Origin: Candidatus Micrarchaeota archaeon
Lineage (GTDB): Archaea; Micrarchaeota; Micrarchaeia; Norongarragalinales; UBA8480
Reading direction: 5' to 3'
Assembly: GCA_043805855.1 (NCBI GenBank)
Contig: JAZDHP010000029.1
Location: forward strand, 1 to 57,809
DNA: 57,809 nucleotides
Positions 3,635-48,727 of this stretch are shown one piece after another (the first letter of the stretch is position 1; each line of letters begins with the position of its first letter). A model generated the notes under the pieces. It saw only the letters and a program-made list of their open reading frames with translations. It did no database searches and had not been told where the DNA came from. Position numbers and translations under genes: made by a program.

Positions 3635-3755
3635 GTGATAGCAGCAGCGTCTTTTCCCGTTTTGAAAAACAGTACTTGGGCCGCCGTTAGAGTGCTTGAC
3701 TTCCAGGTTCGAAATGGGACTGGGTATTACCACTCTCCTATGACCGCTATCGCTA
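3635..3755 (-). rRNA. rrf: 5S rRNA (orphan, not in an rRNA operon)
   Basis: The reverse complement contains CCCAGTCCCATTTCGAACCTGGAAGTCAAGC, matching the conserved 5S CCCATCCCGAAC..GGAAGTTAAGC block. The termini pair (GATAGCGG / CTGCTATC). Ends are good to about +/-5 nt. Confidence 0.8.
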
Positions 3756-7438: not shown

Positions 7439-8166
7439 TGAGCGAAATAACGCCGCGTAAAGAACTCGGACAAAACTTCTTGACAAGCGAAGAAATTGCA
7501 ATTCAAATAGCGGAGCTCGTACCAACAAAAGGAAAAGTGTTAGAAATCGGCCCGGGCTTAGGCGCGTTGACAGAACACCTTGCGAAAAGAGTAAGCGATT
7601 TAACTGTTGTTGAAATTGACCCGCAATTGATAGAGATACTTCATAGGAAGTTGCCAGCAAGTGTTGAAATAATTCACAACAACTGCATGAAAGAAGATTA
7701 TTCACAATACGATGCAATTGTTGGATTACTTCCCTACAACCTTTCTTCACAGATAATTGAAAAGTTCACCGTAAGCACCGCGAAAACCGCAGTGTTTGTT
7801 ATACAAAAGGAACTAGCTGAGCGAGTTGTTGCGCCTGCCGGTACACGAGACTACTCTCGCTTCAGTGTACTGTGCCAAAACAACTGCAACTGCGAATTAA
7901 TTGAAACTTACCCACCGGAAGTATCCTGGCCAGCGCCGCAAGTGCACAGCTCACTGGTCGTAATGAAGAAAAAGAAACCAATTGCGCTTAACCAACAACT
8001 TGTAAACGCGCTGTTCCAGCACAAGAATCAAAACGTGAGAAAAGCATTGAAACACTCGCGGCATTTACTGAAAATAGATGAAACAAAAATCTCACAAACA
8101 CTACTAGAAAAGAAAGTAGTACAGTTGACAATTCAAGAGCTAAGCGAAATGGGCAAACTAATTTAG
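7438..8166 (+). CDS. ksgA: 16S rRNA (adenine1518/1519-N6)-dimethyltransferase KsgA/Dim1
   Basis: ELGQNFL, VLEIGPGLGALT and LPYN motifs. The ATG overlaps the upstream stop (TAATG). Confidence 0.85.
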   Translation: MSEITPRKELGQNFLTSEEIAIQIAELVPTKGKVLEIGPGLGALTEHLAKRVSDLTVVEIDPQLIEILHRKLPASVEIIHNNCMKEDYSQYDAIVGLLPYNLSSQIIEKFTVSTAKTAVFVIQKELAERVVAPAGTRDYSRFSVLCQNNCNCELIETYPPEVSWPAPQVHSSLVVMKKKKPIALNQQLVNALFQHKNQNVRKALKHSRHLLKIDETKISQTLLEKKVVQLTIQELSEMGKLI

Positions 8167-19903: not shown

Positions 19904-20668
19904 ATGCACATTGACGAAGATGTCCACGATCGCCAAAAGAGAGTTAGCGGCTGGAGTCAGGAGAAAATTGCTACTTCTAATGTTGCGGTTGTCGGCGCTG
20001 GTGCTTTGGGCAACGAAGTTGTCAAGAATCTATTACAACTAGGCGTTTCCAGCATCTCGATTATTGATTATGATGTTATTGTAAAGGCTAATTTGAACCG
20101 CTGCGTGTTGTTTACAGAAGAAGACGCGGAAAACAAAGCGTTGAAAGCCGAGGTGCTTAGCCAAAGAGGTAAAAAACTCAACCTCCTTGCGAAAATAACT
20201 CCAGTTTTGAAAAACGTCGAGGAGCTGGACGATAAATTCTTCTCTCAATTCGGCTCAGTGTTCGGCTGCCTTGACAATTTAGGCGCGAGGGTACATGTAA
20301 ACGCAAATTGCTACGATTGCGTTCCGTTTATCGATGGCGGAACAAGTGGGTTCATGGGCAAAGTACAAGTCGTTGCAAAGCCGTCAGCGTGTGTTGAATG
20401 CGCGCTCTCAAAGCAAGATTATGGTTTACTGTGGAAAAAGTACTCGTGCACCGGCGATTTGCTTGATGTGATGGACCCAAAGATGCCCGCGCTGCCCACA
20501 ACGACGAGCGTAATCGCAGGAATCCAAGTAAACGAATTTCTTAAACTCCTAAACCCGCAGTTGAAAGGCAAACCTCTCGCGGGGAAATACCTTTTCTATA
20601 ATGGTTTAACCAGCGAAACGAAAATGTTCACCGCTGAAAAGAGAAAGGGCTGTCCAGCGCACGAATAG
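19904..20668 (+). CDS. E1-like ubiquitin-activating enzyme (ThiF/MoeB/UBA adenylation domain)
   Basis: VAVVGAGALGNEV (GxGxxG), ANLNRCVLF (E1 NLNRQFLF motif), CLDNLGARVHVN, two CxxC pairs (CYDC, CVEC) and a candidate catalytic Cys in KYSCTGD. Confidence 0.8.
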   Translation: MHIDEDVHDRQKRVSGWSQEKIATSNVAVVGAGALGNEVVKNLLQLGVSSISIIDYDVIVKANLNRCVLFTEEDAENKALKAEVLSQRGKKLNLLAKITPVLKNVEELDDKFFSQFGSVFGCLDNLGARVHVNANCYDCVPFIDGGTSGFMGKVQVVAKPSACVECALSKQDYGLLWKKYSCTGDLLDVMDPKMPALPTTTSVIAGIQVNEFLKLLNPQLKGKPLAGKYLFYNGLTSETKMFTAEKRKGCPAHE

Positions 20669-20727
20669 GAGAATAAGCAAATGTTAAAAACATCAAAGTT
20701 GTAATTAATAAAAGAGGTAATAATTCA

Positions 20728-21114
20728 ATGGAAAACTTGTTAAAAACTACGTTGCGTGGTGGAAAGAACCTTGGTATTGCAATTGTAGCCGGCTCTGCAA
20801 TTAGACGGCTAGTGCAAACCAAACAAGGCGAAGCAGCAGCCAAGGCACTAAAACAACACTTGCGTCCCGGGCTATACTCACTTAAAGTGAATGAAGGCGC
20901 AACGCACGCGGTTTTCACAACGGAAACCACAATAATAAAACCTTTCCCAGGTGCAAGAGAAAGGCCTGGAACAATTGTACGCATTCAACTAGTTGCGCTC
21001 CCTAAACACGAAGGTAAAGTTGTGAAATTACCATTCGGAGGAGTGCGCTATCCAATAACAGAAAAACGCATAGAAAGGCCAAAAGGCAAAGTAACAGAAA
21101 GGCCGCGCAGGTAA
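20728..21114 (+). CDS. hypothetical protein in the ubiquitin-like cluster
   Basis: 128-aa ORF directly after the E1-like gene, basic C-terminus. No motif recognised. Confidence 0.45.
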   Translation: MENLLKTTLRGGKNLGIAIVAGSAIRRLVQTKQGEAAAKALKQHLRPGLYSLKVNEGATHAVFTTETTIIKPFPGARERPGTIVRIQLVALPKHEGKVVKLPFGGVRYPITEKRIERPKGKVTERPRR

Positions 21115-21115
21115 G

Positions 21116-22093
21116 CTATTCAAACGCGTCTTTTATTTCGTTTATCACGTCACGGCTACGTTTGTCAATGATTAGCAATAGTTTTTTACCGCAGCGTATG
21201 CACTGTGCATTGCCGTCTAGTAGAGAATCGTAGCATTCTTTATGGTAAGCTGCGCCGCAAAAACAGTGGCCGTACTTTGACAATGCTGAATCAGAAACTG
21301 CGAGTTTAAACTGAGATTTGCACAAGTCACACGCTTCCCCGTTACCGTTGCTTCCATTACTTTCATTTTGGTGTAAAGGTTGAGGTGGAACTGATTGTGA
21401 AGAAGCGACCCTTGTTTTAACAGGCTCTTGAATTATAGTGTGCGGCATTCTCACTTGTACTCGCAGTGGCTCTCCAGTTGCTTTATGTTGTAAGAAGCGT
21501 TGCCGCTGTTCTGGCGACGGACCGTAGCGTTTCATTATCTCTTCCAAATCCATTTTTCCAAGTTTACCGCCAAGGTCAACAACTTCTGTAGTTGAAAGAA
21601 AGTCTTTAACGTGTTTTTGCCCCTCACTTTCAACAACAGTTGGTTTCCTTGCAACAAACGGATGTTTTTGCAGCTTAACTTCGCCAGTAAAAGTTTTCTT
21701 TAAGCTAACTTTTTTCGCACCTTTTCCAGCGTAAAAATTATAACCTTTTATTGTTAAACCAAAAACTCCACTATCTTCTGCAACGAGTTGTTCGGTTTTC
21801 AAAACGTTTAGTTGAGTCATTAACTCGCTACGCGCGACGCCGAGTTGTAAAAGTAAATCATCTGGATTTCCAGTACCTTCGCGAATTAAGTGCAATAAAT
21901 CTCTGTCAAACTGCGTTTGTTTAAACGCCAGTTTGCGTGGTTGGCGCTTTTTCTTCTCTTCTTTTTGCTCTTTCTTTTCTTCTTTTCTATCTTCCTTTTT
22001 GTCTTCTCTTTTAGCTTCCTTGGCTTCTTTTTGAACCGACGTAGCTGCCGCTGGCTTTTCTTCTCTCGCCATTATTGGTTTTTCAGCGTTCAC
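21116..22093 (-). CDS. Lys/Glu-rich + winged-helix + C-terminal C4HC3 (RING-variant/PHD-like) zinc-finger protein, candidate E3
   Basis: The C-terminus CDLC-x16-CFC-x4-H-x2-C-x10-C-x2-C fits a cross-brace C4HC3 finger. The start overlaps the JAMM gene stop by 4 nt. Confidence 0.6.
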
Positions 22094-22539
22094 TTTATCA
22101 CCGCAAATGAAACTTCTCCGTATGAATTACCAGCCAAGCGATAAAAACGCTTTGCCATTACTTTACCCGCGCCAAAATCATCAGAAGCTAGCGGATCAAA
22201 TACTGCGGCAACGTGGAATTGCTCGTTGAAAAAACGACGTTGGGTAGAAACATCAGTTGTTGAAAGAAAACACCCGTAGCCAGGGTGCGAGTGGCACCAG
22301 CCGACAACTATTTCGCCACTTTTTTGCAACTCTTCGGCAATTTTTTCAAACGCGTTTGGAGAAAAGCGAACCGAAACAGCTGAAGAATCAGTTTCGCTTG
22401 TAATAAATTCATTCACAACAACGAAATTCTTCCCTTTGTGCTCGCAAACTTCTCCCATGAGAAGGCCCATTCCTTCCAAGTGAAGCGACGCCAATTGCGA
22501 AAAGTACTCCTCTGCTTTTTGCACTGCGGTTTGCTTCAT
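22090..22539 (-). CDS. JAB1/MPN/JAMM metalloprotease (Rpn11-like deubiquitinase candidate)
   Basis: [17 protein letters not shown] is an exact HxHx7Sx2D JAMM motif, with an upstream Glu in LLMGEV. ATG at 22539; an alternative GTG at 22566 is possible. Confidence 0.85.
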
Positions 22540-22546
22540 GTACACT

Positions 22547-23341
22547 TCAAGCGCCACACTTAGCACCTTTTAGTTTTCTTGCTAAACGTTTAACTCGTTG
22601 CCACTTGGTTAGCTTTGGAACATGCCGAACAATAGTATCAGGATGCACAAGAGTGTGTTTGTAAACCTCGCGGAGAGCTTTTTCAAAATTTCTCACCTCT
22701 CGCTGTGGAAATTCATCAACGCGAAGTAGTGAGTTAATTGCTTCTATTGCAATTCGCAAATCTCTTTCAGGTGTAACCATATGGTGTGTTTCTCGTAGTA
22801 ACGTCGGGTCAATCAACTGCACTGAACCATTAACATTTCTAACTGCATTTCTAGTACCTGGATGCGTGTGCACGAAACCAAGAGCGTGTAACTTAGCAAG
22901 TTGGCGAACAAACTCAAAACTAGCTCTAATCCTATCTCTCCTCGGGATTGTTGAATCGGAAAGGTAGCTATTAAGCGGGCGAGAGTCTTTCTTCCATAAG
23001 GTAACTAAAAGGCGGCGGCCGTCGGGCTGTTCAATAAACGCAACTGGCATTTCAACCAACGCGCGCTGAGAAGCAGCTAATGTCTGTAAACGATTAAATA
23101 TATTAGTTGGCGGAAAATAGGCGTTAACGTCTGACGAAACCCCGCCAACTGCGCAGTTTCTAACGGCAAGTTGATGCCTGCCAAATTGGTGAATGGTTAA
23201 AGCCGGAACTGTTCCAAAAATAACCCACTCAGGGGTTTTCAGCGCGGCTAGTAACTCGCGTGGGTTGTGCTTCTTCCAGTGCGTGACCCCAACTTCTCCT
23301 TCAGGGGTTTGAATTTTGTGCGTTTCCCATTCAAGCGGCAA
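22547..23341 (-). CDS. kinase-fold protein, atypical catalytic loop (paralog B)
   Basis: [30 protein letters not shown] parallels 3807..4667. Apparent TTG start one nt after the upstream stop. Confidence 0.55.
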
Positions 23342-23342
23342 A

Positions 23343-23633
23343 TTATTTCAACCCCAGCGCGTCTTTAAAGTCTCCAGTTAACCCTCGGCGCTTTCGCCTG
23401 TCTCGTTTAATCTTTTCCATTACATCTGGATCAACATTTAACGGAGAAAATGGAGGTTGGGAAGGAATAGCATCGCGCAGCTGCTGTTTACGCAGTTCAG
23501 CAACAACATCAACTGGAACAATCTGGGAAAATGCTTCAGCTTGCTCATCGATATTCTCAACTGGCTCAATTTGTTTAATTATCTTCGGCTTCGCTGGCGG
23601 CTTTTTAACTTCAACAACGCGGGGTTTTGACAT
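23343..23633 (-). CDS. small basic hypothetical protein
   Basis: 96 aa, Lys/Pro-rich N-terminus and RKRR near the C-terminus. Sits between the two kinase-fold genes in the same operon. Confidence 0.45.
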   Translation of the reverse strand: MSKPRVVEVKKPPAKPKIIKQIEPVENIDEQAEAFSQIVPVDVVAELRKQQLRDAIPSQPPFSPLNVDPDVMEKIKRDRRKRRGLTGDFKDALGLK

Positions 23634-23684
23634 AAAGAAAAAAGGAAGGCTAAGTTAAAAAAAGCATAAGTGCATTCAACGAAA

Positions 23685-24425
23685 TTAAACTATTCCTTCC
23701 CGCGCTATTCTTTGGTTTTCCGCTTCGATTCTTATCGCCTTTACCATTTTCTTAAAGTACTTTTTAACAGCAGGATGTTCCCAACGATTAACGTCGATAA
23801 CATTAGCGCCTCGTCGGTTGCCAATTAGATTTCTTACATTTGTATCGCTAGTTGTAAACCCAGCATTGCGAGCACGTTGAAGCAAACCTACGCTTAAGTC
23901 AACAATCTCTCCCTTGCATTTCTCTCTTACTACTCTTTTAGTCACAACCGCCCGACGGCCATCTTGATAGTAAATAATCGCTTGAGGAACCTCAGCGTTT
24001 ACTTTGACGCTCTTCAAACCAAGCAACAAACGCGCTTCTTTAGTTGCTTGCGCTTCAATCGTCTTTACTTTACCTGGAGAAAAAACAACCTCGCGGCTAG
24101 AAGCATAATCCCGCCACCAAGGTTGACCCAAAACAAACGACCGCTCTGGCTCTTTTACAAACAAAGACGTCGGCTTAAGATTAGACAACGTTTGAACGTG
24201 TACAACTGAACGCATGTTTCCTCGTCGAGTATATCCGCGCCAATTTTCAGGCATTAAATGCTCGTGAGGAACACTACAAGTTGGCAAAATAACAACGCGA
24301 TGCCCCGCAGGAGTGTGCAAAACCTCTAGTCTTGAAAGTCTTCGCACTTTTGTAGGTTCTTGAAGTTCAGTCATTGCAAGAATAATTCGCGTGGCAAGGC
24401 ATAATAAATTTCCGGCTGTAACCAT
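23685..24425 (-). CDS. kinase-fold protein (paralog C, retains Asp in the catalytic loop)
   Basis: PQAIIYYQDGRRAVVTK and ARNAGFTTSDTNVRNLIGNRRGANVIDVN parallel [17 protein letters not shown] and the [10 protein letters not shown]...LIDP of paralog B. The real start may be the Met at 24374, leaving room for a divergent promoter. Confidence 0.5.
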   Translation of the reverse strand: MVTAGNLLCLATRIILAMTELQEPTKVRRLSRLEVLHTPAGHRVVILPTCSVPHEHLMPENWRGYTRRGNMRSVVHVQTLSNLKPTSLFVKEPERSFVLGQPWWRDYASSREVVFSPGKVKTIEAQATKEARLLLGLKSVKVNAEVPQAIIYYQDGRRAVVTKRVVREKCKGEIVDLSVGLLQRARNAGFTTSDTNVRNLIGNRRGANVIDVNRWEHPAVKKYFKKMVKAIRIEAENQRIAREGIV

Positions 24426-24443
24426 TAGCGAGGCGAATAGAAC

Positions 24444-24689
24444 ATGGCAGAGTTTAACATTAAAGTTTCACACACGACAAGCGGAAAAGAAATAACCCTA
24501 GCAGTTGAACCAGAATTCACCGTACAATCAGTTTTGGATGTGCTAGTTGACTCCCTACAACTAAAAGACCGCTTCGTGTTGGCAAAAGCTTCTGACAACA
24601 AAATCCTAACGCCAGAAATCACAATGAACGACGCAGGCGTAAAAGAAGGCGAAACGCTACTACTGATGCCTGATCCTACTGGCGGCTAA
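24444..24689 (+). CDS. ubiquitin-like beta-grasp modifier ending in Gly-Gly-stop
   Basis: 81 aa with alternating beta-grasp-like hydrophobic pattern. The C-terminus ...LLLMPDPTGG is followed directly by TAA, so no processing is needed. Immediately upstream of the E2. Confidence 0.75.
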   Translation: MAEFNIKVSHTTSGKEITLAVEPEFTVQSVLDVLVDSLQLKDRFVLAKASDNKILTPEITMNDAGVKEGETLLLMPDPTGG

Positions 24690-24728
24690 AAAAATAGAAA
24701 TATAAAACAGAAAAGGCGAAAAACAACA

Positions 24729-25196
24729 ATGCCAAAATTACCTGAGTCAATTTGGCGTCGTAGAATAGACAATGAATATGCAGAACTTAGCCGCAATTTA
24801 AAAATTGCAAACCTAGAGGCAAACAGCGACAAAACAGAATATCACTTTACCTTAAACGCTACCGCGTACAAGAAAAACGGAACTGCAATTGTTCCAGTTA
24901 GCATGCACAACGTTTCAATTTACTTAACGCGGGAATACCCGTACGCTGGCGGGATTGAAGTCATATGGGATAGTGATATTTTTCATCCTAACATCCGCGC
25001 TAAAGACGGCGCAGTTTGCATTCAAGTGTTAAACCACTGGAGTGAATCGCAAACACTGTCAAGTGTCGTTGACGCGCTTGTACAAATGTTGGAAAATCCA
25101 AACCCCTACTCGCCGTTGAACAGTGAAGCCGCGAAATACTTCGCTAATTACATCCCGCAGAAAACTGAACCTGGAAAACCGAGAGTGGTTGTTTGA
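24729..25196 (+). CDS. E2 ubiquitin-conjugating enzyme (UBC fold)
   Basis: YPYAGGIEVIWDSDIFHPNIRAKDGAVCIQVLNHWSESQTL contains the HPN motif, the catalytic Cys and the conserved Trp. NPNPYSPLNSEAAKYF follows. Confidence 0.85.
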   Translation: MPKLPESIWRRRIDNEYAELSRNLKIANLEANSDKTEYHFTLNATAYKKNGTAIVPVSMHNVSIYLTREYPYAGGIEVIWDSDIFHPNIRAKDGAVCIQVLNHWSESQTLSSVVDALVQMLENPNPYSPLNSEAAKYFANYIPQKTEPGKPRVVV

Positions 25197-29046: not shown

Positions 29047-30291
29047 ATGTTAACATTGAACGCGTTTCAAGTTTTGGATTCAAGAGGAATACCAACCATA
29101 TGTGCTGTTTTGAAAAACGAAACAGGAATCTTCACTGCAACGGTTCCTTCAGGAACTTCTTCCGGTAAATTTGAAGCGGTTGAACTCCGCGACGGGGGTA
29201 AACCCTTCAAAGGTAAAGGGGTAACCAAAGCAATTCAAAACGTTTCGGAAATCGCAAAAAAGCTTCCATCTAGGATTTACAAAGATCAACAAAAACTTGA
29301 TAAATTACTAATTTCGCTTGACGGCACGCCAAACAAAGGAAAGTTGGGCGGAAATGCCCTGCTTGCAGTTAGCTTAGTTTGTGCTAAAGCCGCTGCGGCT
29401 GAAAACAAGCAGCAACTTTTTGAATATTTATCTACTCTCTCTAAAAATACACCAACCCTTCCAATTCCAACACCAACAGTTATTGACGGCGGAAAACATG
29501 GAGGTAACCGCCTTTCAACCCAAGAGTTTCTACTATTTCCAACCAAATTTTCAACATTCGCCGACTGTACTACCGCAGTTGCGGAAATTTACATGGAGTT
29601 GCAAGCGCTAATTTTAAAGAAATTTGGAATATCCGCAACTAATGTTGGGCTAGAAGGGGGGTTTGCCCCGCCGCTTGGGAAAACGCCAGCTGCGCTTGAT
29701 TTAATCTCAACAGCAATTGAAAGAGCAGGTTATGCCGGCATAGTTCGCCTTGGTTTAGATGTAGCTGCGAGCGAATTTTACAATGAAAAAACAAAGAAGT
29801 ACAACTTCGAGGGAAGGCAACTTTCAACAGAGCAATTAGTCGAAGAATATCTCAAGCTCATTACCGAGTACAAAATCATTTCAATTGAAGATCCGTTTGA
29901 CCAAGAAGATTGGAAGGGGTTTACACAATTAACAAAGCAAAGCAAAATTCAAGTAGTTGGTGATGATTTATTAGTTACAAACCCTGCGCGAATTAAGCAG
30001 GGAATTGCAAAGCAGGCAGTTAACTCACTTCTACTTAAGCCAAACCAAATTGGTACAATCAGCGAAACGCTGGCTGCTGCTAAGCTTGCGAGAAGCGCCG
30101 GGTGGACTGTTTTTGCATCACATCGCTCTGGAGACACTGAAGATACATTCCTATGCGACGTAGCTGCTGGCCTTGCGTGTGAATTTGCAAAGCTTGGAGC
30201 GCCATGCCGAAGTGAACGCACCTCAAAATACAACCGCTTTTTGTATTTAGAAAAGTTTCACAAGGTTAAGCTCGCAAAACCAAAGTTTTAG
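29047..30291 (+). CDS. eno: enolase (phosphopyruvate hydratase)
   Basis: VLDSRGIPT, PSGTSSGKFEAVELRDGG, SHRSGDTEDTF. ATG at 29047 preferred over the track start. Confidence 0.9.
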   Translation: MLTLNAFQVLDSRGIPTICAVLKNETGIFTATVPSGTSSGKFEAVELRDGGKPFKGKGVTKAIQNVSEIAKKLPSRIYKDQQKLDKLLISLDGTPNKGKLGGNALLAVSLVCAKAAAAENKQQLFEYLSTLSKNTPTLPIPTPTVIDGGKHGGNRLSTQEFLLFPTKFSTFADCTTAVAEIYMELQALILKKFGISATNVGLEGGFAPPLGKTPAALDLISTAIERAGYAGIVRLGLDVAASEFYNEKTKKYNFEGRQLSTEQLVEEYLKLITEYKIISIEDPFDQEDWKGFTQLTKQSKIQVVGDDLLVTNPARIKQGIAKQAVNSLLLKPNQIGTISETLAAAKLARSAGWTVFASHRSGDTEDTFLCDVAAGLACEFAKLGAPCRSERTSKYNRFLYLEKFHKVKLAKPKF

Positions 30292-31462
30292 CGCGTTGTA
30301 AAATTTCCCAAGCGGGAATTTCTTTTTTGGCACGGCTAGTTTTCTCATCAAAAAAATTATCTCTTCCCTCTACCCCTTCACCAGCAACTAAAACAGGCAC
30401 AGTGTCAGAAGAATGTGCTTTTAGCTTACATGGCGTCGAGTGATCTGCGGTTATAATAATTCTAGTTTTTGTTAAATCAACTTTTAAATTTCCAAAGAAT
30501 TTTTCATCAATCTCTTCAATACACTTTTTCTTTTCAATTGGTTTACCATCGTGGCCAAAAATATCCGGGCCCTTCAAGTGAACGTAAACATTTTCACGTT
30601 CAATTTCACGAGCAGCAACTTGCGCGATTTTTGTGTAATCCCCCTCTTTAACACACACTACTTTCATTTGAAACGCTTTGCCGATTCCAATTTCAAGTGG
30701 CATACCTGCAAGAATAGTCCAGTCACGATAATCTTCCGAGGGTAACTCCGTTTCACAATCCCGCAGCGTAATTCCGTTCGCTTGCAATTGCCCCCCCGTA
30801 CTTCGTTTTTTGTTAAAATCGCCTTTTTCCAACGCGGCGTTTACTGCAAGGGTAAATTCATTTACAATTTTCGCCGCTTCAACCGTTTCCTTTTTGCCAT
30901 CAAGTGCAACGCATTCTAAAATTTCATCGCCAAAATTTGTCAATGCGTTTGTAATTCCCCGGCTGTCCTTCTGGTACGCGGGGTCAGTATTTTGTACGTT
31001 TTTCGAAAACTTCCCCTTGAACCAAACAACCCCCCGATGTCCGGCAGTTGCGCGGAAAACAAACGGCACGCTTAGTTTAATTTTGTTAATTTCTTTTTCC
31101 AATAACTTTGCATCTTCGGTGCTTATCCGCCCCGCGCGCCGGTCAACAATTTTTCCGCCACGCAACGTGCAAAAATTAGTCCTGGCAACAAGCCAACCTG
31201 GCTTAAACTCTTCACCAGTTGAAAGTAACTCGAAAATAGAACGACCATAGTGTTTTTCAAACGGGCTAATCCCAAGAATCGACAATACTCCAACATCACT
31301 CTCTGGAGCAACATCTTTCGCAATGCGTGCGTTCCACACAATTGCCCTCTTCGCAAGCGCGTCCATATGCGGCTTGTGAGCCGCTTCAAGTGGCGTCTTT
31401 CCTTTAAGTTCAACGCAGGGTAAATCTCCAACGCCGTCAAGCACAATAAGCAACGTTTTCAT
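30266..31462 (-). CDS. apgM: cofactor-independent phosphoglycerate mutase, archaeal type (ApgM)
   Basis: MKTLLIVLDGVGD, ITADHSTP and family length. The 3' end overlaps the convergent enolase 3' end by 26 bp. Confidence 0.8.
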   Translation of the reverse strand: MKTLLIVLDGVGDLPCVELKGKTPLEAAHKPHMDALAKRAIVWNARIAKDVAPESDVGVLSILGISPFEKHYGRSIFELLSTGEEFKPGWLVARTNFCTLRGGKIVDRRAGRISTEDAKLLEKEINKIKLSVPFVFRATAGHRGVVWFKGKFSKNVQNTDPAYQKDSRGITNALTNFGDEILECVALDGKKETVEAAKIVNEFTLAVNAALEKGDFNKKRSTGGQLQANGITLRDCETELPSEDYRDWTILAGMPLEIGIGKAFQMKVVCVKEGDYTKIAQVAAREIERENVYVHLKGPDIFGHDGKPIEKKKCIEEIDEKFFGNLKVDLTKTRIIITADHSTPCKLKAHSSDTVPVLVAGEGVEGRDNFFDEKTSRAKKEIPAWEILQRAKTLVLRA

Positions 31463-31493
31463 GAGTTAAGCTACGCTGGGGAAAAATAAAAAG

Positions 31494-31671
31494 TAGCGGG
31501 GGGAAGATAATCAAAGGTTATTCAGCTTTGAAGAATCTTCTTTGAACTTCCGGTCTCCGGGTTATGAGCTTCGCCTCAAGCAACTTTGCAGTCGCCCGAA
31601 CCAGCGGGCACTCCTGGCTACCCTTAGGTCAAAATGATCAACAAAACAAGTGATTAAATTGATACCCCGCT
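31494..31671 (-). tRNA. initiator tRNA-Met (CAT) interrupted by three introns
   Basis: Exons 31671-31663, 31623-31601, 31569-31541 and 31507-31494 join to AGCGGGG-UA-GGGU-AGCCAGGAGU-GCCC-G-CUGGG-CUCAUAA-CCCGG-AGACC-GGAAG-UUCAAAU-CUUCC-CCCCGCU-A. This has A1:U72, three G:C pairs at 29-31/39-41 and A73. BHB-like folds are found at the introns. Confidence 0.75.
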
Positions 31672-31717
31672 GTAGATACAGGAGTGTAAAAAATAGTCAC
31701 AAGGATATTATTAAGCG

Positions 31718-32404
31718 CTATGCTTTAAGAGAAAATTGAGGTTTAAGCGTACTAGAATCAACCAAGCCGCTTAATGTTGTAATTTTTCTTTCAAGCTTCT
31801 GTAGTTCTTCATCTTGGTCAACTGAATTTAACTTACCTCTACAACTTGGACAGCGAAAACTATTTTCAACAGCTTTTTCAAATTCAAAACAACCGCAGTT
31901 TTTAGTACAACGGTAAACTTGCCCGCCCTCTCCCCGCGCTAATTGTACGCGAAGTTGTTCGTACTCGCGTTTCTTTGAATTCAAAAAGTTTTGCAACGCG
32001 CGGTTTGTGTTTAGCTTCCAGGTATAAGTAAACCAACCTGTTTGCAAGTTTTTCTCGCGGCTATACTCAACCAACCCATAACTATGCAAGTGGTTTAACA
32101 CAGAACGAATCTCAGCAATTTTCATCTTTGTATTCTGTTCTATCTTATCATCAGTAGTTCCGCAGTCGCCCATGCAAGAAACAATTTTCAAACCCTCTTC
32201 TCCCGCAACTTCACGCACAAATTCATTAACATGATCAACAGTAACCCGTGGCAACTGGGGAGAAGTCTCTTTTTTTGGGGTTAGTTGTTTCTTTGCGAAA
32301 CTTTTAGGCAAGATTTTTTGCGCCTCGCTTTTAATTATGTAGAGTGATTTTAAATAACCCTTCGCTCCTGAAAAATACATGGAACCCAGATGCGAACAAC
32401 GCAT
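31718..32404 (-). CDS. tfe: transcription factor E alpha (TFE) with an N-terminal extension
   Basis: wH region (EGLKIVSCM..TDDKIEQNT..IAEIRSVLNHLHSYGLVEY) followed by the zinc ribbon YRCTKNCGCFEF...FRCPSCRGKL. The start (32404 or the Met at 32380) is uncertain. Confidence 0.7.
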   Translation of the reverse strand: MRCSHLGSMYFSGAKGYLKSLYIIKSEAQKILPKSFAKKQLTPKKETSPQLPRVTVDHVNEFVREVAGEEGLKIVSCMGDCGTTDDKIEQNTKMKIAEIRSVLNHLHSYGLVEYSREKNLQTGWFTYTWKLNTNRALQNFLNSKKREYEQLRVQLARGEGGQVYRCTKNCGCFEFEKAVENSFRCPSCRGKLNSVDQDEELQKLERKITTLSGLVDSSTLKPQFSLKA

Positions 32405-32450: not shown

Positions 32451-32613
32451 CGGGCTCGTAGCTCAGCTTGGTAGAGCAATTGGCTCTTAACCAATGGGTC
32501 GAGGGTTCCGAACCCTTTTCTTCTTGAAAGAAGAAAAGCCTTCGAGTGGAAAAGAAGAACTAATAATTTTTCTATCCCGAGAATTGGTTCGCCCAAAAAT
32601 CCCTCCGAGCCCG
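32451..32613 (+). tRNA. tRNA-Lys (CTT) with an 88-nt intron in the T-loop (56/57; intron 32509..32596)
   Basis: The 5' part is a canonical acceptor/D-arm/anticodon arm (ATTGG-CTCTTAA-CCAAT) ending GAGGG-TTC. The matching AAAT-CCCTC-CGAGCCC-G lies 88 nt downstream. The BHB (GGGT/GCCC helix, bulges TCC and AAA, GAACC/GGTTC helix) puts the cuts exactly where TTCAAAT is restored. Confidence 0.8.
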
Positions 32614-32850
32614 CTTTCTTCTTTTTACACTCTAACAGAAAGCCTTTTATTGCGCTTTAACCTATTATTTTTAGCATCGGATTATATAGGTGGGTTGAAC
32701 GCAGGTGCGCCAAGTTCAGAATCCAGATATCCTAATTAAAGTGTTTGGAGGGGACTTGGCCGCCGTGTTCTAAAATTATTTTTTGACAACTACTTTTTTC
32801 GTTGTTCCAAAGCGTATTTAATTTCCCTTTTTTCTATTTTTTTGTAAAGT

Positions 32851-33046
32851 GCGAGGTTGGCAGAGCAGTTATGCATCCGCCTGCAGCAGCTTTTTCTTTC
32901 TAAAGAAAGAAAAAGACTGTGGGAAAAAGAAAGACGATAGTTTTCATTTCTTTTTGGCGCCACGCCCGGCACCTTTTTCTTTCGCAAAGAAAAAGGGGCA
33001 TGGCAGCAGTCAGCGGAGGAGAGGGGTGCAACTCCCTTACCTCGCT
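32851..33046 (+). tRNA. tRNA-Cys (GCA) with a 125-nt intron at the canonical 37/38 site (intron 32887..33011)
   Basis: GCGAGGT/ACCTCGC acceptor, U73 discriminator, TCCGC/GCGGA anticodon stem, CTGCAG|...|A loop. The BHB has a CTGC/GCAG helix with bulges AG|C and TC|A. Caveat: the T-loop reads TGCAACT (G at 55) and the variable loop has 4 nt. Confidence 0.65.
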
Positions 33047-33058
33047 CTTTTTGTTTTA

Positions 33059-33526
33059 CTAAGAAGTAGTTCTTTTTTTCGTTGCTTTTTTCAAAGCAGC
33101 TAGCCATTCGTCGATTGGATATGTTTTGTGTGATTCTAGTCCAAGTCGCGCCAGTTGCTTTGTTCTATCTTCGCTTGGTTTTTGGCTAGTGCTTATTGTT
33201 TGTATTCCTTGTGTTTTCAAGTGAGCGACGCAAATTTTTTCTATATGTGCAGCTAGTCCCTTGGCAAATCCTTTAGCGTCTCTTCCTTTTGGAAAATAAG
33301 TTTCGTTTTCTGCGTGTTTACCTGTAATTGAATATGCAATTTCTCCAAAAGGAGCCCGGCGGCCAGTATATATTTTTTGCAGGGTGGTGTGGTGTTGCTT
33401 TGGGATTTTCATTATTGCAATTCTTCTTTTAATTTGTGCTGCTGTTCTTTGAGTGTTTTCATTTTCTAAGTCGCACCAATATTCATATCTTCCATTGTGA
33501 TAAATTGAAAGTTGCAGGTTTGGCAT
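33059..33526 (-). CDS. hypothetical protein
   Basis: 155-aa ORF with an ATG start. No secure motif. Confidence 0.45.
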   Translation of the reverse strand: MPNLQLSIYHNGRYEYWCDLENENTQRTAAQIKRRIAIMKIPKQHHTTLQKIYTGRRAPFGEIAYSITGKHAENETYFPKGRDAKGFAKGLAAHIEKICVAHLKTQGIQTISTSQKPSEDRTKQLARLGLESHKTYPIDEWLAALKKATKKRTTS

Positions 33527-39205: not shown

Positions 39206-39592
39206 CTATTTGATCCGCTTTATTCCACTTACTTTGTCAAAACCCGCGTCGAATGACAAAATTTCTTTTAAACCAAGGCGCTGCATGTGAAGTATCATGT
39301 TTGCGTCGGTGAAACTTAACTCTGGGCTTTTTGAGTGAATTTCTTTTGTAGCATTGAATGATAGTTTATCGTTGTAAATGACTTCTTGTTTTTGTGAACT
39401 TGTTAGGAGTTCAAATGCTTCTCTCGATGCGTGTGCTCCGCTTTTTCGCAGTAAAAAATTAGCTACTTCTATAATTGCATAGTCAGTCATGTGTCGCTTG
39501 TTCTTTAAAAAAATAGGCAATAGTTGCAAAGCTGATTCGTGTTTTTCATCTCGGTTATATAAGTAAGCTATCCAGCAACTGCTATCAATCAT
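39206..39592 (-). CDS. PIN-domain toxin (VapC-like)
   Basis: MIDSSCWIAY (Asp3), later E and FTDAN/SFDAGF acidic positions. 4-nt overlap with the upstream small gene. Confidence 0.7.
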   Translation of the reverse strand: MIDSSCWIAYLYNRDEKHESALQLLPIFLKNKRHMTDYAIIEVANFLLRKSGAHASREAFELLTSSQKQEVIYNDKLSFNATKEIHSKSPELSFTDANMILHMQRLGLKEILSFDAGFDKVSGIKRIK

Positions 39593-44394: not shown

Positions 44395-44760
44395 TCATAT
44401 TATTTCAACTTTTTTCATTTTGGCGAAGTCACTATCTCGAGTAAGAAAAGTGTAATTGTGCGTTAATGCAGTTGCATAAATGAGTGAGTCAATGGCCGAG
44501 AGGCTCTTTGTGTTAGAAAGTTCGCCCGCTAATTCGCAAGTTTCAAAGTTTAGTGCGAGTATGTTGTATTTTTTAATGTCAGAGATTATTTTCCACCATT
44601 CGCTTATTTTTCCCGTGTTTCTAAAGTATTTGTTGAGTTCGTAAACTGACAATATGGAAATGCTTGCGCTAGTCTCATCTAAGCGAGTCATAACTGCTTC
44701 AGGCAATTTTCCTTGAAGGTAGTCTATTAAGGCGCTCGTGTCAGCTAAATACTCGGTCAC
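44395..44760 (-). CDS. PIN-domain toxin (VapC-like)
   Basis: YLADTSALIDYL (Asp), later E and LTRDSDF. Overlaps the upstream small gene. Confidence 0.7.
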   Translation of the reverse strand: MTEYLADTSALIDYLQGKLPEAVMTRLDETSASISILSVYELNKYFRNTGKISEWWKIISDIKKYNILALNFETCELAGELSNTKSLSAIDSLIYATALTHNYTFLTRDSDFAKMKKVEII

Positions 44761-45026: not shown

Positions 45027-47513
45027 TTACTCGACGTCGCTTACTCCGTCTTCGTTTACGATGAAGATGCATTCTCCTTCTGCGAGGTGTGGTGAGTCGA
45101 CGATTTTGGCAATGCGACGGTTTTCTTTGCTGCGGCGCAGGTACATTCTTACTCCTGACGCGTGTGCAACTACGTTTCCTCCAACTGGAGTTGTCGGGTC
45201 TCCGAACATCATATCTGGCTTGTCCATAACTTGATTTGTAACGTAAATCGCAACGTTGTGAAGTTCAGCTAGTTTTTGCAATTCATGCATGTGTCTGTTT
45301 AGCTTTTGCTGTCGCTCGGCTAATTGCCCGCGGCCTAAGTATTCGCTGCGAAAGCAAGACATTAGCGAATCTACAATAACGAGTTTAATGTTCTTCTCTT
45401 TAATGAGGTCATTTGCTTTTTCTACAAGTAGCACCTGGTGGTCGCTTGTATGCGCTCGTGCAATTACGATGTTTTTCAACACCGTTGCTTCGTCTAGCCC
45501 CTTTGCTTTTGCCATTTGTACAACTCTCTCTGGCCGGAAAGTTGATTCAGTGTCAATGAACAGTGCGCCGGCTTCTAGCCCGCCTTGTTCTTTTGGTAGT
45601 TGAACATTTGCGCATAGTTGGAACGCAAGCTGGCTGTTGTGAAGTATTGTTGGTAGGTTTCCGCCTATGAATGTGTGCCCGTTTGGCACAACGAAGTCGT
45701 ATACATAGTCATTGTAAGGTACTATTTGTTTTTGTTGTACGTCGTCCCAGTTGAACAACGCTACTATTTTGAGTTGCTCCACTCCATTTTGAAGCGCATC
45801 GAGTCGTTTTTCTAATTCTATTTTAATAGCCTCTAAAACAGCTTTGCTTTTTTCGGGGTTGATTCCGCGAGTTGAATAATTTTCAATGCATTTCTTAGTT
45901 AGTTGTAATTCAGAGTAAAGAGAATTGAAGGCAAAGGGTAGTTTTGCAATCAGCGCCTTGTGTTTTTTCCTGTCGCTTCCAGCTGTTTCGGTTTCTTTTA
46001 TTAATTCTTGCAAATATACAGCACCTTGCTGTAGGAATTGAACAGTATTTACCAGTGTTTTTTCGGTTATTTTTTTCTCAATGCTGCCGGTGAAGGTGCT
46101 GAATAGGGTTTCGTTTATTTCTTTGATTGAGTGTTTGCCGTGGATTTTTCTCGTTCTTCCCCTGTTGCCGCCTAAACTGTTTTTGTAAATGTTTTTTATA
46201 AGTTTGAGAATTGTAATAGGGTAACCGTGGGCGGATGTGTTGCACTTCTGGGAATATTTCTTGAATTTGTATGGTAAATTTCTTAATTTTTCCCGGTCAA
46301 ATCCAGTTACGTATAGGCGATGATACCGCCCGTATTTTGGGTGTTGTTTTGTTTTGTAAGTAGTTGTTATTCCGAGCAGCATACACAGGTAAGATAACCC
46401 TTCTGCTAGTGTTTTGCTTTTTGTAGTCATTTCAACTGCTTTGCTCAAGTAGCCGTCTCCATCTATGTAGCCGGCTAGAAACGCTTTTTTAGCAGCTTCG
46501 CTTGAAGTGAAAATTTCAAGAGGTACAAATTTGCCGCCAGCTTTGCTTGTAGCGAGTTTTCCAAGTAGGGAGCTAGCGCTTTCCCTTATTAAAATTCGAT
46601 ATATGGCTTGCCTTTTTTCGGCGGCGGGCCTTTTTTCAATTGTTGGTTTATATCTAAATTTGTTTTGTAAATAATTTTCAAGCCAGTTTTTCATTTCTTC
46701 ATCCGCGGTGTCAATTGAAAGTGGGTTTGAAGTTCCTTCTGCAGTAAATAAACCAAGAAAATATGCATCGTCTTCATTCATTTCATTGGTTTCAGGTAGG
46801 TTTACTATTTTTGGATAAGCTATACTCTCGCCTGCCTCAACTAACCCGGCTTGTTTCCATGTTACTCCTTGCGGCGTTAATACGAGCAGGCGGTGCGGTA
46901 GGGTTACTTTCAATTCCCTTCCCCGCTTTGTTTTTATTGCTGCTATTTCGCTAACCTTTTCCTTGTATATCGTGTTGGTTTTTTCAACTGTAAGTCCATT
47001 GTTTGTTAAGCTGTTGACATAAACTGGAATTCCTTTTACAACGAACCCTTCTTCAAACTTTTCCTCACCAAACTTAGCCGCGTATTTGTTATAAGTTTCT
47101 TCTATTGTTTCAAGGTGAAAGTGCTCGTCGTTCAAGTACGAAACAACCGTGTCTTTCGCAATGCATTTACCGCTGCCAAATCTTCCAAATCCCTCTGTGA
47201 TGTTCATTGTTTCAATGCCGCCGCCAAGGAGAGTGTCGAGTTCTTTTGACCCAGTTGTAATTTTCTGGATATTTTTCCTTCTCTCGAGTACAATGTCTGC
47301 AGTTTCGTAGCCCATTTCCAACGCGTCGCGCGCTGCAATGACTATCTTAGCGGCTGTGCCTTCGCCGATTCCAGCAACTTCTGCGATTTCCGAAGCTCTG
47401 CTGACTGCTATAATTTCAAGAGAGTCGTAACCTGCTTCTTTTAACTTCGAGGCATTTGTATCCCCCACACCAGGAAGCTCTTCGATAGTTGTTATCTTCT
47501 TTTTTCCTGCCAT
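45027..47513 (-). CDS. radA: DNA repair and recombination protein RadA, interrupted by an intein
   Basis: N-terminal HhH (IEELPGVGDTNASKLKEAGY), Walker A split as GRFGSGK|C...HN|SQL, and a RadA C-terminal core (LFIDTESTFRPER, VIVDSL). Start set at the ATG at 47513 (GGTGA 8 nt upstream). Confidence 0.9.
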   Translation of the reverse strand: MAGKKKITTIEELPGVGDTNASKLKEAGYDSLEIIAVSRASEIAEVAGIGEGTAAKIVIAARDALEMGYETADIVLERRKNIQKITTGSKELDTLLGGGIETMNITEGFGRFGSGKCIAKDTVVSYLNDEHFHLETIEETYNKYAAKFGEEKFEEGFVVKGIPVYVNSLTNNGLTVEKTNTIYKEKVSEIAAIKTKRGRELKVTLPHRLLVLTPQGVTWKQAGLVEAGESIAYPKIVNLPETNEMNEDDAYFLGLFTAEGTSNPLSIDTADEEMKNWLENYLQNKFRYKPTIEKRPAAEKRQAIYRILIRESASSLLGKLATSKAGGKFVPLEIFTSSEAAKKAFLAGYIDGDGYLSKAVEMTTKSKTLAEGLSYLCMLLGITTTYKTKQHPKYGRYHRLYVTGFDREKLRNLPYKFKKYSQKCNTSAHGYPITILKLIKNIYKNSLGGNRGRTRKIHGKHSIKEINETLFSTFTGSIEKKITEKTLVNTVQFLQQGAVYLQELIKETETAGSDRKKHKALIAKLPFAFNSLYSELQLTKKCIENYSTRGINPEKSKAVLEAIKIELEKRLDALQNGVEQLKIVALFNWDDVQQKQIVPYNDYVYDFVVPNGHTFIGGNLPTILHNSQLAFQLCANVQLPKEQGGLEAGALFIDTESTFRPERVVQMAKAKGLDEATVLKNIVIARAHTSDHQVLLVEKANDLIKEKNIKLVIVDSLMSCFRSEYLGRGQLAERQQKLNRHMHELQKLAELHNVAIYVTNQVMDKPDMMFGDPTTPVGGNVVAHASGVRMYLRRSKENRRIAKIVDSPHLAEGECIFIVNEDGVSDVE
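45636..47165 (-). mobile_element. 510-aa intein with a LAGLIDADG homing-endonuclease domain, inserted in the RadA P-loop
   Basis: Begins with Cys after GSGK (CIAKDTVVSY...) and ends ...TILHN followed by Ser+1. Two LAGLIDADG blocks (FLGLFTAEGT, LAGYIDGDGYL). Confidence 0.85.
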
Positions 47514-47586
47514 TTTTTCCATCACCTTTAAACCAGAAGCCACGAGAACGGGCATTTTCGGTAAAAGGCCCCTCCGCGGCCTTCAG

Positions 47587-47632
47587 CACAAACGCGAGCG
47601 TTTGTGTCTGAGTCACAAAGCGAAGCTTTGTG
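47587..47632. other. two tandem near-identical hairpins (CACAAACG-CGAG-CGTTTGTG and CACAAAGC-GAA-GCTTTGTG)
   Basis: Perfect 8-bp stems at 47587..47606 and 47614..47632. The arms can also cross-pair. Located in the untranslated region upstream of radA. Confidence 0.7.
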
Positions 47633-47689
47633 CTCATTTGAACCACACGGGCTGGAGCCAAACTAGATGAAGTAGTCAACGTTTCTAGG

Positions 47690-47699
47690 TTTATAAATA
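47690..47699. promoter_or_regulatory. TATA-box-like element TTTATAAATA
   Basis: Near-palindromic archaeal TATA consensus in the radA / 47856 divergent intergenic region, directly beside the 22-bp repeat. Confidence 0.45.
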
Positions 47700-47704
47700 G
47701 TTCC

Positions 47705-47726
47705 CGACACGTCGTTGCCGGTAAAA
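47705..47726. repeat. 22-bp direct repeat, copy 1 (CGACACGTCGTTGCCGGTAAAA)
   Basis: Identical to 48780..48801. Both copies follow a TATAAA-type box, so similarity extends to about 40 bp. Confidence 0.9.
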
Positions 47727-47768
47727 GGCCGCTCGGGGCCGCAGGCCTTTTAGACCTCTGGCCAAGGC

Positions 47769-47821
47769 GGTTGCAGAAGGTTAAAGGACCGTCGCTGGCG
47801 GTCCTTTGCCGGTGAAAGGTG
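47769..47821 (+). promoter_or_regulatory. conserved leader element, copy B (GGTTGCAGAAGG..GGACCGTCGCTGGCGGTCC..GGTG..AAAGGTG)
   Basis: Matches copy A (16468..16525, minus strand) block for block. The hairpin at 47786..47804 differs from copy A by compensatory changes (A:T instead of G:C). Confidence 0.6.
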
Positions 47822-47855
47822 AAAGTTAATAACTTGAAAGTGGATTTATGAATTA

Positions 47856-48167
47856 ATGTTAATTTCTGCTAGTGATTTTGTGGCGTTAATCCGAGCGAAA
47901 CCGCGCCAGTTTAAATTTACTCGGCATGCGCTTGAAAGAGCTGAAAAACGAGTCATGTCTTCTAAAGTGTGTGAAGAAGAGTTATTGTCGAGAGAGCCGC
48001 AAGGAGTGTTGGAACAGCAAACTAGAATATCTGGTGAAAGAAAGTTTCGGGTTTATTATAAGCAGGATGACGATAAGTTTCATTGCTATATAGTGGTTTT
48101 AAATAAAGCTATTCGCGTTATAACTATGATGCGCATAAGTAAAGAATTGCAAGTTAGGTGGAGATAA
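47856..48167 (+). CDS. DUF4258-like putative toxin
   Basis: 103 aa. KFTRHALERAEKRVMS and the small beta C-terminus resemble DUF4258. Overlaps the next gene by 10 nt. Confidence 0.4.
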   Translation: MLISASDFVALIRAKPRQFKFTRHALERAEKRVMSSKVCEEELLSREPQGVLEQQTRISGERKFRVYYKQDDDKFHCYIVVLNKAIRVITMMRISKELQVRWR

Positions 48168-48502
48168 TGGCAAATTTTAATTACGATGAAGAAGGAGATA
48201 TCTTTACTATTGACATTAGTTCAAAAAAAGCTTATTTGTCGCTTGAAGTTAGCCCCGATTTAATTGTAGATTTAGCAGCAAATCATCAGCTAACTGGAAT
48301 CGAACTACTAAATGCTAGTGAAGTGCTTAGTAAATTATTCGGAATCAACATCAAGAAAAGTGAGTTGCACAAGATTCACTGCGCTATAAATCAAGACGCA
48401 ATTGAAAACAATGAAGGTTTATATGCTACTTTTAAACTAGGTGAAAAAACAGCCAAGGTTTTGATTCCAACTAATTACGAAAGTCCAATAGTTTCAGGAT
48501 AA
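48158..48502 (+). CDS. DUF2283-like putative antitoxin
   Basis: NYDEEGDIFTIDIS...IVDLAANHQLTGIELLNAS matches the YD.e.D.l.i ... GIEIL.AS pattern of DUF2283. Confidence 0.5.
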   Translation: MEIMANFNYDEEGDIFTIDISSKKAYLSLEVSPDLIVDLAANHQLTGIELLNASEVLSKLFGINIKKSELHKIHCAINQDAIENNEGLYATFKLGEKTAKVLIPTNYESPIVSG

Positions 48503-48535: not shown

Positions 48536-48727
48536 TCATCTTTTTATTTTGATATCGCGCCAGTTCTTTTCTTTGCCTTGTTGCATTTCAGCAATAATTG
48601 TGCTAAATTCTTTGCGTTCAGTTTCGCTAATTTCTTCGTCTGGGATAATTGCGTCGCGTAAGGCGTGAATCTCGCGGTGCATTTCTTTCAATTCGCCGTA
48701 AAGCACATTAAGAGTAACTTCTTCCAT
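48536..48727 (-). CDS. small helical hypothetical protein
   Basis: 63-aa charged coiled-coil-like ORF. A TATA-like box and the 22-bp repeat lie 35-75 nt upstream. Confidence 0.4.
   Translation of the reverse strand: MEEVTLNVLYGELKEMHREIHALRDAIIPDEEISETERKEFSTIIAEMQQGKEKNWRDIKIKR

Follow-up and report, generated by a model that had tools for sequence, protein, structure and literature searches.

Does the gap between apgM and tfe in a Micrarchaeota genome hold an initiator tRNA gene that ordinary detectors pass over? The window, that is, the whole stretch of DNA analysed here, comprises 57,809 nucleotides (nt) of contig JAZDHP010000029.1 (Candidatus Micrarchaeota archaeon, assembly GCA_043805855.1; G+C content of the source genome, 42%). 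Its apgM (30266-31462) and tfe (31718-32404) genes, both on the minus strand and both confirmed by Pfam (tfe through the TFE-alpha domain), are separated by 255 base pairs (bp; 31463-31717). A sequence-only reading had proposed that four minus-strand segments of this gap, parted by introns of 39, 31 and 33 nt, join into an initiator tRNA. In this study, we found the gap, the segments and the intron lengths all as proposed. On comparison with related sequences, we consider it very likely that 31494-31671 (minus strand) is a functional initiator tRNA-Met gene with three protein-spliced introns.

The gene reads on the minus strand as follows. Exon 1 (AGCGGGGTA / AGCGGGGUA; 31671-31663) provides tRNA positions 1-9, namely the acceptor 5' strand, U8 and A9, and is followed by a 39-nt intron at 9/10 (intron 1, 31624..31662). 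Exon 2 (GGGTAGCCAGGAGTGCCCGCTGG; 31623-31601) provides positions 10-30, with the D-arm, G26 and the 5' part of the anticodon stem, and is followed by a 31-nt intron at 30/31 (intron 2, 31570..31600). Exon 3 (GCTCATAACCCGGAGACCGGAAGTTCAAA; 31569-31541) covers positions 31-59, from the anticodon loop CUCAUAA through the anticodon-stem 3' strand, the variable loop and the T-stem 5' strand to A59 of the T-loop. A 33-nt intron at 59/60 (intron 3, 31508..31540) separates it from exon 4 (TCTTCCCCCCGCTA; 31507-31494), which provides positions 60-73 with U60, the T-stem 3' strand, the acceptor 3' strand and the discriminator A73, where it ends; CCA is not encoded.

Joined, the four exons formed a 75-nt molecule that ARAGORN accepted as tRNA-Met(CAT), a perfect cloverleaf with 21/21 stem pairs. 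Every hallmark listed in the sequence-only reading could be read from it: A1:U72, the D-arm GGGU/GCCC, G29-31:C39-41, the loop CUCAUAA, the T-loop UUCAAAU and A73. The archaeal/eukaryal initiator signature consists of A1:U72, three G:C pairs in a row (29-31:39-41) and A73. Exon 3 holds the only initiator-type anticodon arm in the 57.8-kb window. The unspliced locus received no ARAGORN call and no Rfam match at the gathering score or at E<=10. Since the gene is interrupted, this silence was not counted as evidence against it.

We then searched reference genomes and, after them, metagenome contigs with a pattern made of the exon bases flanking 30/31 only (CCCGCYGG, a gap of 12-42 nt, and GCTCATAACCCGGAG). 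The reference genomes gave 23 matches, 9 archaeal and 14 bacterial. The archaeal ones all came from metagenome-assembled genomes (MAGs) of Candidatus Micrarchaeota, one of them labelled merely 'archaeon'. The metagenome contigs added 12 archaeal loci, for a total of 21 related interrupted initiator genes. The 14 bacterial matches and 10 further metagenome matches were discarded, since in them CCCGCYGG happened to precede a normal tRNA-fMet gene or coding sequence; L030, an unrelated uninterrupted tRNA, was discarded too. Under one rule set, 20/21 loci parsed into a 75-nt initiator tRNA, and L037 was cut by the contig end. The distinct sets comprised 19 interrupted initiator genes and, for covariation, 16 spliced sequences.

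Intron occupancy differed among these loci. The 30/31 intron stood alone in L002. It was accompanied by a 9/10 intron in L010, L015, L026, L035, L045 and L047, by a 59/60 intron in L005, L014, L022, L031/L034, L040 and L042, and by both, as in the window, in L004/L025, L007, L036 and L043. Exons 1 and 2 were contiguous in six distinct relatives (seven loci; L002, L005, L011, L014, L022 and L031). Intron 3 was absent and its exons joined in L002, L010, L015, L045 and L047, and introns 1 and 3 were both absent from L002. The exon boundaries were thus fixed independently of folding, since relatives without a given intron show those exons directly joined. In L011 (MAG JAZDKC010000044.1), the 30/31 and 59/60 introns were accompanied by a third that is best placed at 43/44 (4-bp helix ACCC/GGGU, 4/4; inner helix 10 bp), so that four intron positions appear to be used in this initiator tRNA family (9/10, 30/31, 43/44 and 59/60).

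A TATA-like box recognised from its sequence (TTAATAATAT; 31705..31714, minus strand) immediately follows the stop codon of tfe and precedes the mature 5' end by 34-43 nt. An A/T-rich box was present at a similar distance (about -45 to -32) in L002, L004, L010, L015 and L022. Archaeal tRNA promoters have been reported at -30 to -49 (Chan et al. 2011, PMC3218864). A putative T-rich terminator (CTTTTTATTTTT; 31482..31493, minus strand) adjoins A73, and a T-run follows A73 in most parsed relatives.

Next, the introns were scored for bulge-helix-bulge (BHB) geometry, which consists of an outer helix (h), a 4-bp central helix (H), 3-nt bulges cut after nucleotide 2 and an inner helix (h'). Each junction was scored together with every alternative junction yielding the identical mature sequence. 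In intron 2, H was formed by C25 G26 C27 U28 (CGCU) with GGCG (4/4), flanked by the bulges GG|U and AA|G. These elements agreed with the sequence-only reading. The inner helix, 10 bp closed by a GCAA loop, was better than the 6 bp given there, and no outer helix was found. The splicing conformer lay +2.1 kcal/mol above the minimum free energy (MFE) structure, with a pair probability of ~0.15 for H. Across the 19 distinct loci, H at 30/31 was 4/4 in 19/19 and h was always 0, while h' had a median of 8 bp, was built from unrelated sequences and was better than shuffles in 18/19. By its predicted pairing, intron 2 is of the relaxed HBh' class.

In intron 3, the T-stem serves as h (5 bp), H is UUCA/UGAU (3/4 plus U.U), the bulges are AA|G and UA|U, and h' is AAG/CUU (3 bp), as the earlier reading had described. 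This conformer cost +6.3 kcal/mol. A 59/60 intron was present in 11 other distinct loci, and H reached at least 3/4 in 11/12 in total, with the T-stem as h. From this geometry, intron 3 appears to be near-canonical hBHBh'. It is the only intron of the three with strict hBHBh' form, that is, with both outer helices. The h of intron 1 is at most 1 bp unless a helix between the 5' leader and the D-arm, described below, is counted. Introns 1 and 2 would thus belong to the relaxed, not the strict, BHB class.

The spliced cloverleaf was examined for covariation. Pairing was found in 99.1% of cells among the 16 distinct spliced sequences, a percentage somewhat inflated by our parser, which placed exon 4 by 7/7 acceptor pairing. 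By our estimate, about 2% of loci would show a 7/7 acceptor match by chance; exon 4 is also marked independently by its conserved sequence and the T-run. Pairing fell to 44-59% when the 3' partners were slid by 1-3 columns. Seven pairs were altered on both sides, and the observed values were reached in 0/500 shuffles. The co-varying pairs reach across exons: exons 1 and 4 are joined by 5:68 and 7:66, exons 3 and 4 by four T-stem pairs.

Conservation of the locus was then compared between exons, introns and neighbours. Between the window and four relatives, exons were 85-96% identical and introns 20-72%; the introns diverge far faster than the exons yet keep BHB geometry. The gene order tfe-initiator tRNA-apgM(-eno) was common to L002, L010, L014 and L015, at a protein identity of 40-56%. 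L043, the closest relative, kept tfe-initiator tRNA-apgM and was collinear over its whole 3.5 kb at ~70% nucleotide identity. From the covariation, the contrast in divergence between exons and introns and the shared gene order, we conclude that the gene is real, orthologous across a deep clade and, as far as sequences can tell, under selection as a spliced tRNA. It is the homologs and the covariation, not the window alone, that lift the locus above chance.

Besides the parser effect mentioned above, several points weigh against a functional gene with three BHB introns. In the window, the intron 1 motif was no better than that of shuffled introns (p ~0.5 for H, ~0.06 for h'), and without the leader its BHB fold cost +12 to +14 kcal/mol relative to the acceptor stem. 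The search pattern demanded an insertion at 30/31, so our survey covered genes interrupted at that site. A Pfam scan of the 59 open reading frames (ORFs) of at least 110 amino acids found no EndA or RtcB gene in the window. Finally, a second, intact initiator gene may lie elsewhere in the genome, beyond the window.

Intron 1 is the weakest part of the proposal, as the earlier reading had itself judged in calling it relaxed and its junction the least certain. Its H is G4-G7/ACCU (3/4; G4-G6/CCU plus a G7.A mismatch), its bulges are UA|U and AA|G, and its h' is CAA/UUG (3 bp). Because H uses the acceptor nucleotides G4-G7, the motif competes with the acceptor stem, and the pair probability of H was ~0 in the equilibrium ensemble. 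With such a motif, the gene might carry BHB introns at 30/31 and 59/60 only, the 39-nt segment being removed otherwise or the 5' part of the tRNA coming from a separate transcript, as in split tRNAs. We regard this as improbable. Exon 1 is encoded in cis, separated from exon 2 by exactly 39 nt, and completes the acceptor stem 7/7. A 9/10 intron was present in 10 other distinct loci, and H was 4/4 in 9/11 in total. It stayed paired when the exon changed (GGGG/CCUC, GAGG/CUUC, GGGG/CCCC), through exchanges that are one-sided and pairing-preserving, not strict double compensations. Intron 1 was 72% identical to that of L043, which has the same G7.A mismatch. An 8/9 junction for intron 1 would yield the identical mature sequence, but it reduced H to 1/4 and was rejected, which left the proposed 9/10 junction as the only one of the two giving a BHB. 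These results suggest that intron 1 is a BHB intron whose motif is weak in the window and rests on its homologs.

A helix that would close the intron 1 motif also accompanies the 9/10 intron. The 5' leader (31672..31686, minus strand) contains CACUCCUG (31686-31679) and CUAC (31675-31672), which are complementary to C17-G22 and G12-G15, respectively. The leader/D-arm duplex had an RNAduplex energy of -16.6 kcal/mol (z = -3.5 versus shuffled leaders). Complementarity was found in 9/11 loci with a 9/10 intron and was clear in 1/8 without it (L014), with L002 marginal (z = -1.9), in lineages that are not independent of each other. The D-loop side is invariant among the clamp-bearing loci, so the clamp gives no covariation signal. 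Adding 16 nt of leader made the BHB conformer of intron 1 cheaper (+4.8 kcal/mol, against +12.4 kcal/mol without it), and when the leader, exon 1, intron 1 and exon 2 were folded alone as a proxy for co-transcriptional folding, the clamp was part of the MFE structure. From the TATA-like box (-43..-34), transcription is predicted to start near -12, so that only part of the clamp would be transcribed. As a hypothesis from these folding models, we propose that the leader clamps the splice motif of intron 1, acting as its outer helix (h).

A different feature was seen upstream of exon 1 in L007, L047 and L040, where the acceptor 5' strand is in part repeated, in direct orientation, next to the exon (AGCGGGAC|AGCGGGGTA, AGCGGGGAAT|AGCGGGGTA and AGCGGGATAC|AGCGGGATA, respectively). 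L007 and L047 are the two intron-1 loci without leader/D-arm complementarity. The copy could be the footprint of a duplication, or it could act as a decoy for the acceptor 3' strand.

The locus might also be a decaying pseudogene, an old initiator gene with three junk insertions whose working counterpart is encoded elsewhere. Standard detectors do reject the locus, the intron 1 motif is weak in the window, and a working copy could lie in the part of the genome outside it. We nevertheless judge this slightly less probable still than a gene with two BHB introns. All four exons are intact and form a perfect cloverleaf, and the same interrupted gene occurs in the tfe-apgM context of relatives whose flanking proteins are 40-67% identical. 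The stems co-vary across exons, the insertions keep BHB geometry while their sequences diverge, and the promoter box and terminator are kept. That the product is instead a tRNA-Met of the elongator type or a tRNA-Ile2 whose CAU carries the agmatidine modification is hardly credible: the CAU anticodon does not separate the three tRNAs, but A1:U72, the G:C pairs at 29-31:39-41 and A73 are all present and invariant in the 16 distinct spliced sequences.

For a functional gene with three introns, we infer the following route. A minus-strand precursor of ~190-200 nt would run from the TATA-like box after tfe to the T-run before apgM. The archaeal tRNA splicing endonuclease would excise all three introns, cutting after nucleotide 2 of both bulges flanking the 4-bp helix. 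At intron 3, the T-stem would serve as the outer helix. Intron 2 has no outer helix and would need a broad-specificity enzyme such as the Micrarchaeota epsilon2 EndA. Intron 1 would probably be cut early or co-transcriptionally, aided by leader/D-arm pairing. An RtcB-type ligase would join the exons into the 75-nt tRNA, and CCA would then be added. RtcA (RNA 3'-terminal phosphate cyclase), normally a partner of the RtcB ligation pathway, is encoded in the window at 56183-57187 (plus strand).

An epsilon2 EndA would be expected in the source genome from the Micrarchaeota affiliation of the homologs and the literature. According to two previous reports, relaxed or non-canonical introns are removed only by (alpha-beta)2 and epsilon2 endonucleases, and epsilon2 is known from ARMAN-1/-2 and Mancarchaeum, all of them Micrarchaeota (PMC3239211, PMC5829648). 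In ARMAN-2, 56% of tRNA genes are described as disrupted, and its epsilon2 EndA as cutting a relaxed 59/60 intron in vitro (PMC3239211). The spliced cloverleaf, the junctions in relatives, the compensatory changes and this literature together support the initial interpretation of BHB introns removed by a broad-specificity enzyme. The window itself carries the archaeal markers Hjc, Nre, PcrB, RpoF, TFE and RadA with an intein.

Two further tRNA genes with introns lie close to the initiator gene. In tRNA-Lys(CTT) (32452-32613, plus strand), the T-loop is interrupted at 56/57 by an intron of 88 nt (32509-32596), whose H is GGGU/GCCC (4/4) and whose h' is GAACC/GGUUC. Spliced, it gave a 74-mer that is a clean tRNA-Lys. 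Because the intron start mimics a T-arm, both detectors gave this gene wrong 3' ends (ARAGORN 32452-32543; Rfam 32452-32516). tRNA-Cys(GCA) (32851-33046, plus strand) was missed by ARAGORN and Rfam; its 125-nt intron (32887-33011) is at the canonical 37/38, with H CUGC/GCAG (4/4) and the anticodon stem as h. Its discriminator is U73, its D-stem has 3 bp and its T-loop (UGCAACU) is unusual; the spliced 71-mer was accepted by ARAGORN. The L043 ortholog has the same T-loop and a compensated acceptor stem (GCGGGGU/ACCCCGC versus GCGAGGU/ACCUCGC in the window), which confirmed the tRNA-Cys identity. A custom acceptor plus T-arm scan for hidden tRNAs recovered the initiator and Lys genes and missed tRNA-Cys because of its unusual T-loop. 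Its sole extra candidate, intergenic 48555-48669, was not a tRNA.

The tRNA-Cys intron is made of long A/G-T/C hairpins (CTTTTTCTTTC...GAAAGAAAAAG). Local repeats around the initiator locus were at chance level except for the 11-mer TTTTTACACTC, which pointed to the Cys region. In L043, positions 1251-1383 are ~80% identical to the Cys intron over 133 nt. They lie inside the initiator 59/60 intron, with their orientation towards the host tRNA reversed, and L043's own tRNA-Cys intron is shorter than that of the window. These sequence matches suggest that the hairpin-rich module of ~125 nt is an intron-borne element moving or copied between tRNA genes. The tRNA-Lys intron and the 93-nt initiator intron of L014 have similar hairpins, with no significant sequence match to the Cys-intron module.

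Taken jointly, the two proposals that the 9/10 intron is spliced only because the leader pairs with the D-arm and that intron content moves between tRNA genes are tentative, and we think it doubtful that both hold. If they did, the leader/D-arm helix would stand in for the absent outer helix and hold G4-G7 apart from the acceptor 3' strand, so that sequence outside the tRNA would be part of the splice signal. The module would represent mobile DNA of Micrarchaeota carried by introns, a counterpart to the transposition of introns reported for Thermoproteales. Clamp and intron movement would then be features not described for DPANN archaea.

Two non-coding regions of the window were also noted. 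The one between tRNA-Lys and tRNA-Cys (~32677-32790, plus strand; GGATTATATAGGTGGGTTGAACGCAGGTGCGCCAAGTTCAG...) is conserved at ~2650-2740 of L043 and matched nothing in Rfam at E<=1. A small RNA of a new type or another heavily disrupted gene could lie here. The other is a 600-bp gap without an ORF or Rfam match (47556-48157) that contains paired GGCC hairpins followed by TTTTAC, especially at 47724-47769 (minus strand), as well as a TTTATAAA box and a GGTTCAAAT motif. The hairpins are found again at 47570-47590, and they match (87% over 46 nt) a segment of L043, 2787-2831, that lies a short way ahead of the tRNA-Cys gene there. This gap may hold terminator-like repeats or another disrupted RNA gene. 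A permissive Rfam search of 32600-33100 and 47540-48170 gave noise only.

Elsewhere in the window, a cluster at 19904-25196 encodes a ThiF-type E1 (19904-20668, plus strand), a JAB/MPN protease (22090-22566, minus strand) and a UQ_con E2 (24729-25196, plus strand), interspersed with unannotated ORFs; the three make up a ubiquitination set of eukaryote-like or Bil-like type in a genome of DPANN type. The RadA/Rad51 recombinase gene (45027-47555, minus strand; 842 amino acids in total) contains an intein with a LAGLIDADG homing endonuclease. A 5S rRNA gene (3636-3751, minus strand; 76.8 bits) and three separate PIN-domain ORFs (1396-1815, 39206-39592 and 44395-44760) were present. No Pfam domain was found in two long minus-strand ORFs, of 1313 amino acids (50062-54003) and 672 amino acids (8163-10181).

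These results leave the picture of archaeal tRNA splicing unchanged; their value lies in a blind spot of annotation tools and in a series of intron variants. An essential initiator tRNA is invisible to ARAGORN and Rfam, and within 1.6 kb the initiator, Lys and Cys genes are all interrupted, each missed or mis-bounded. The training sequences behind the intron models of tRNAscan-SE came from Crenarchaeota/Euryarchaeota and Thaumarchaeota and included no DPANN. A previous report ascribed incomplete DPANN tRNA sets to undetected disrupted genes (Kaneta et al. 2018, PMC5829648). Given undetected interrupted genes of this kind, statements on genome completeness or "missing tRNAs" for DPANN MAGs are in part detector artefacts, as those authors suspected. 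The 19 distinct interrupted initiator genes, with four intron positions, offer a natural series for intron gain and loss, for the relaxed motifs that an epsilon2-type endonuclease must accept, and for training DPANN intron models.

We see the locus as a further multi-intron, BHB-spliced archaeal tRNA in a lineage known for disrupted tRNAs and do not claim its architecture as unreported; archaeal tRNA genes are stated to have up to three introns (PMC3239211, PMC3218864). Like this locus, tRNA genes of Thermoproteales (Pyrobaculum, Thermofilum and Caldivirga; detected with SPLITS and the non-canonical models of tRNAscan-SE) have up to three BHB-type introns. These are at non-canonical positions and often relaxed (HBh' or hBH), are missed by ordinary detectors and need a broad-specificity endonuclease. 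Thermoproteales are hyperthermophiles of the TACK group, and their (alpha-beta)2 EndA has a Crenarchaea-specific loop, whereas the present locus belongs to a DPANN genome in which epsilon2 would be expected. ARMAN-2 is of the same or a close lineage. It has 59/60 and other non-canonical introns with relaxed motifs on which its epsilon2 EndA acts in vitro, and its tRNA-Pro has two introns (53/54 and 59/60), as reported in PMC3239211. The main text of that report, its supplementary tRNA table apart, describes no initiator tRNA, no 30/31 or 9/10 intron and no three-intron gene. The break of the split tRNA-Lys of N. equitans is at 30/31, like intron 2 (Chan et al. 2011, PMC3218864), and that of the permuted initiator tRNA-Met of T. 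pendens is at 59/60, like intron 3 (PMC3218864). Both are processed through BHB motifs by the same endonuclease. Unlike those split and permuted tRNAs, the pieces of the present gene are collinear in what would be one transcript, with introns in cis and neither trans-splicing nor permutation.

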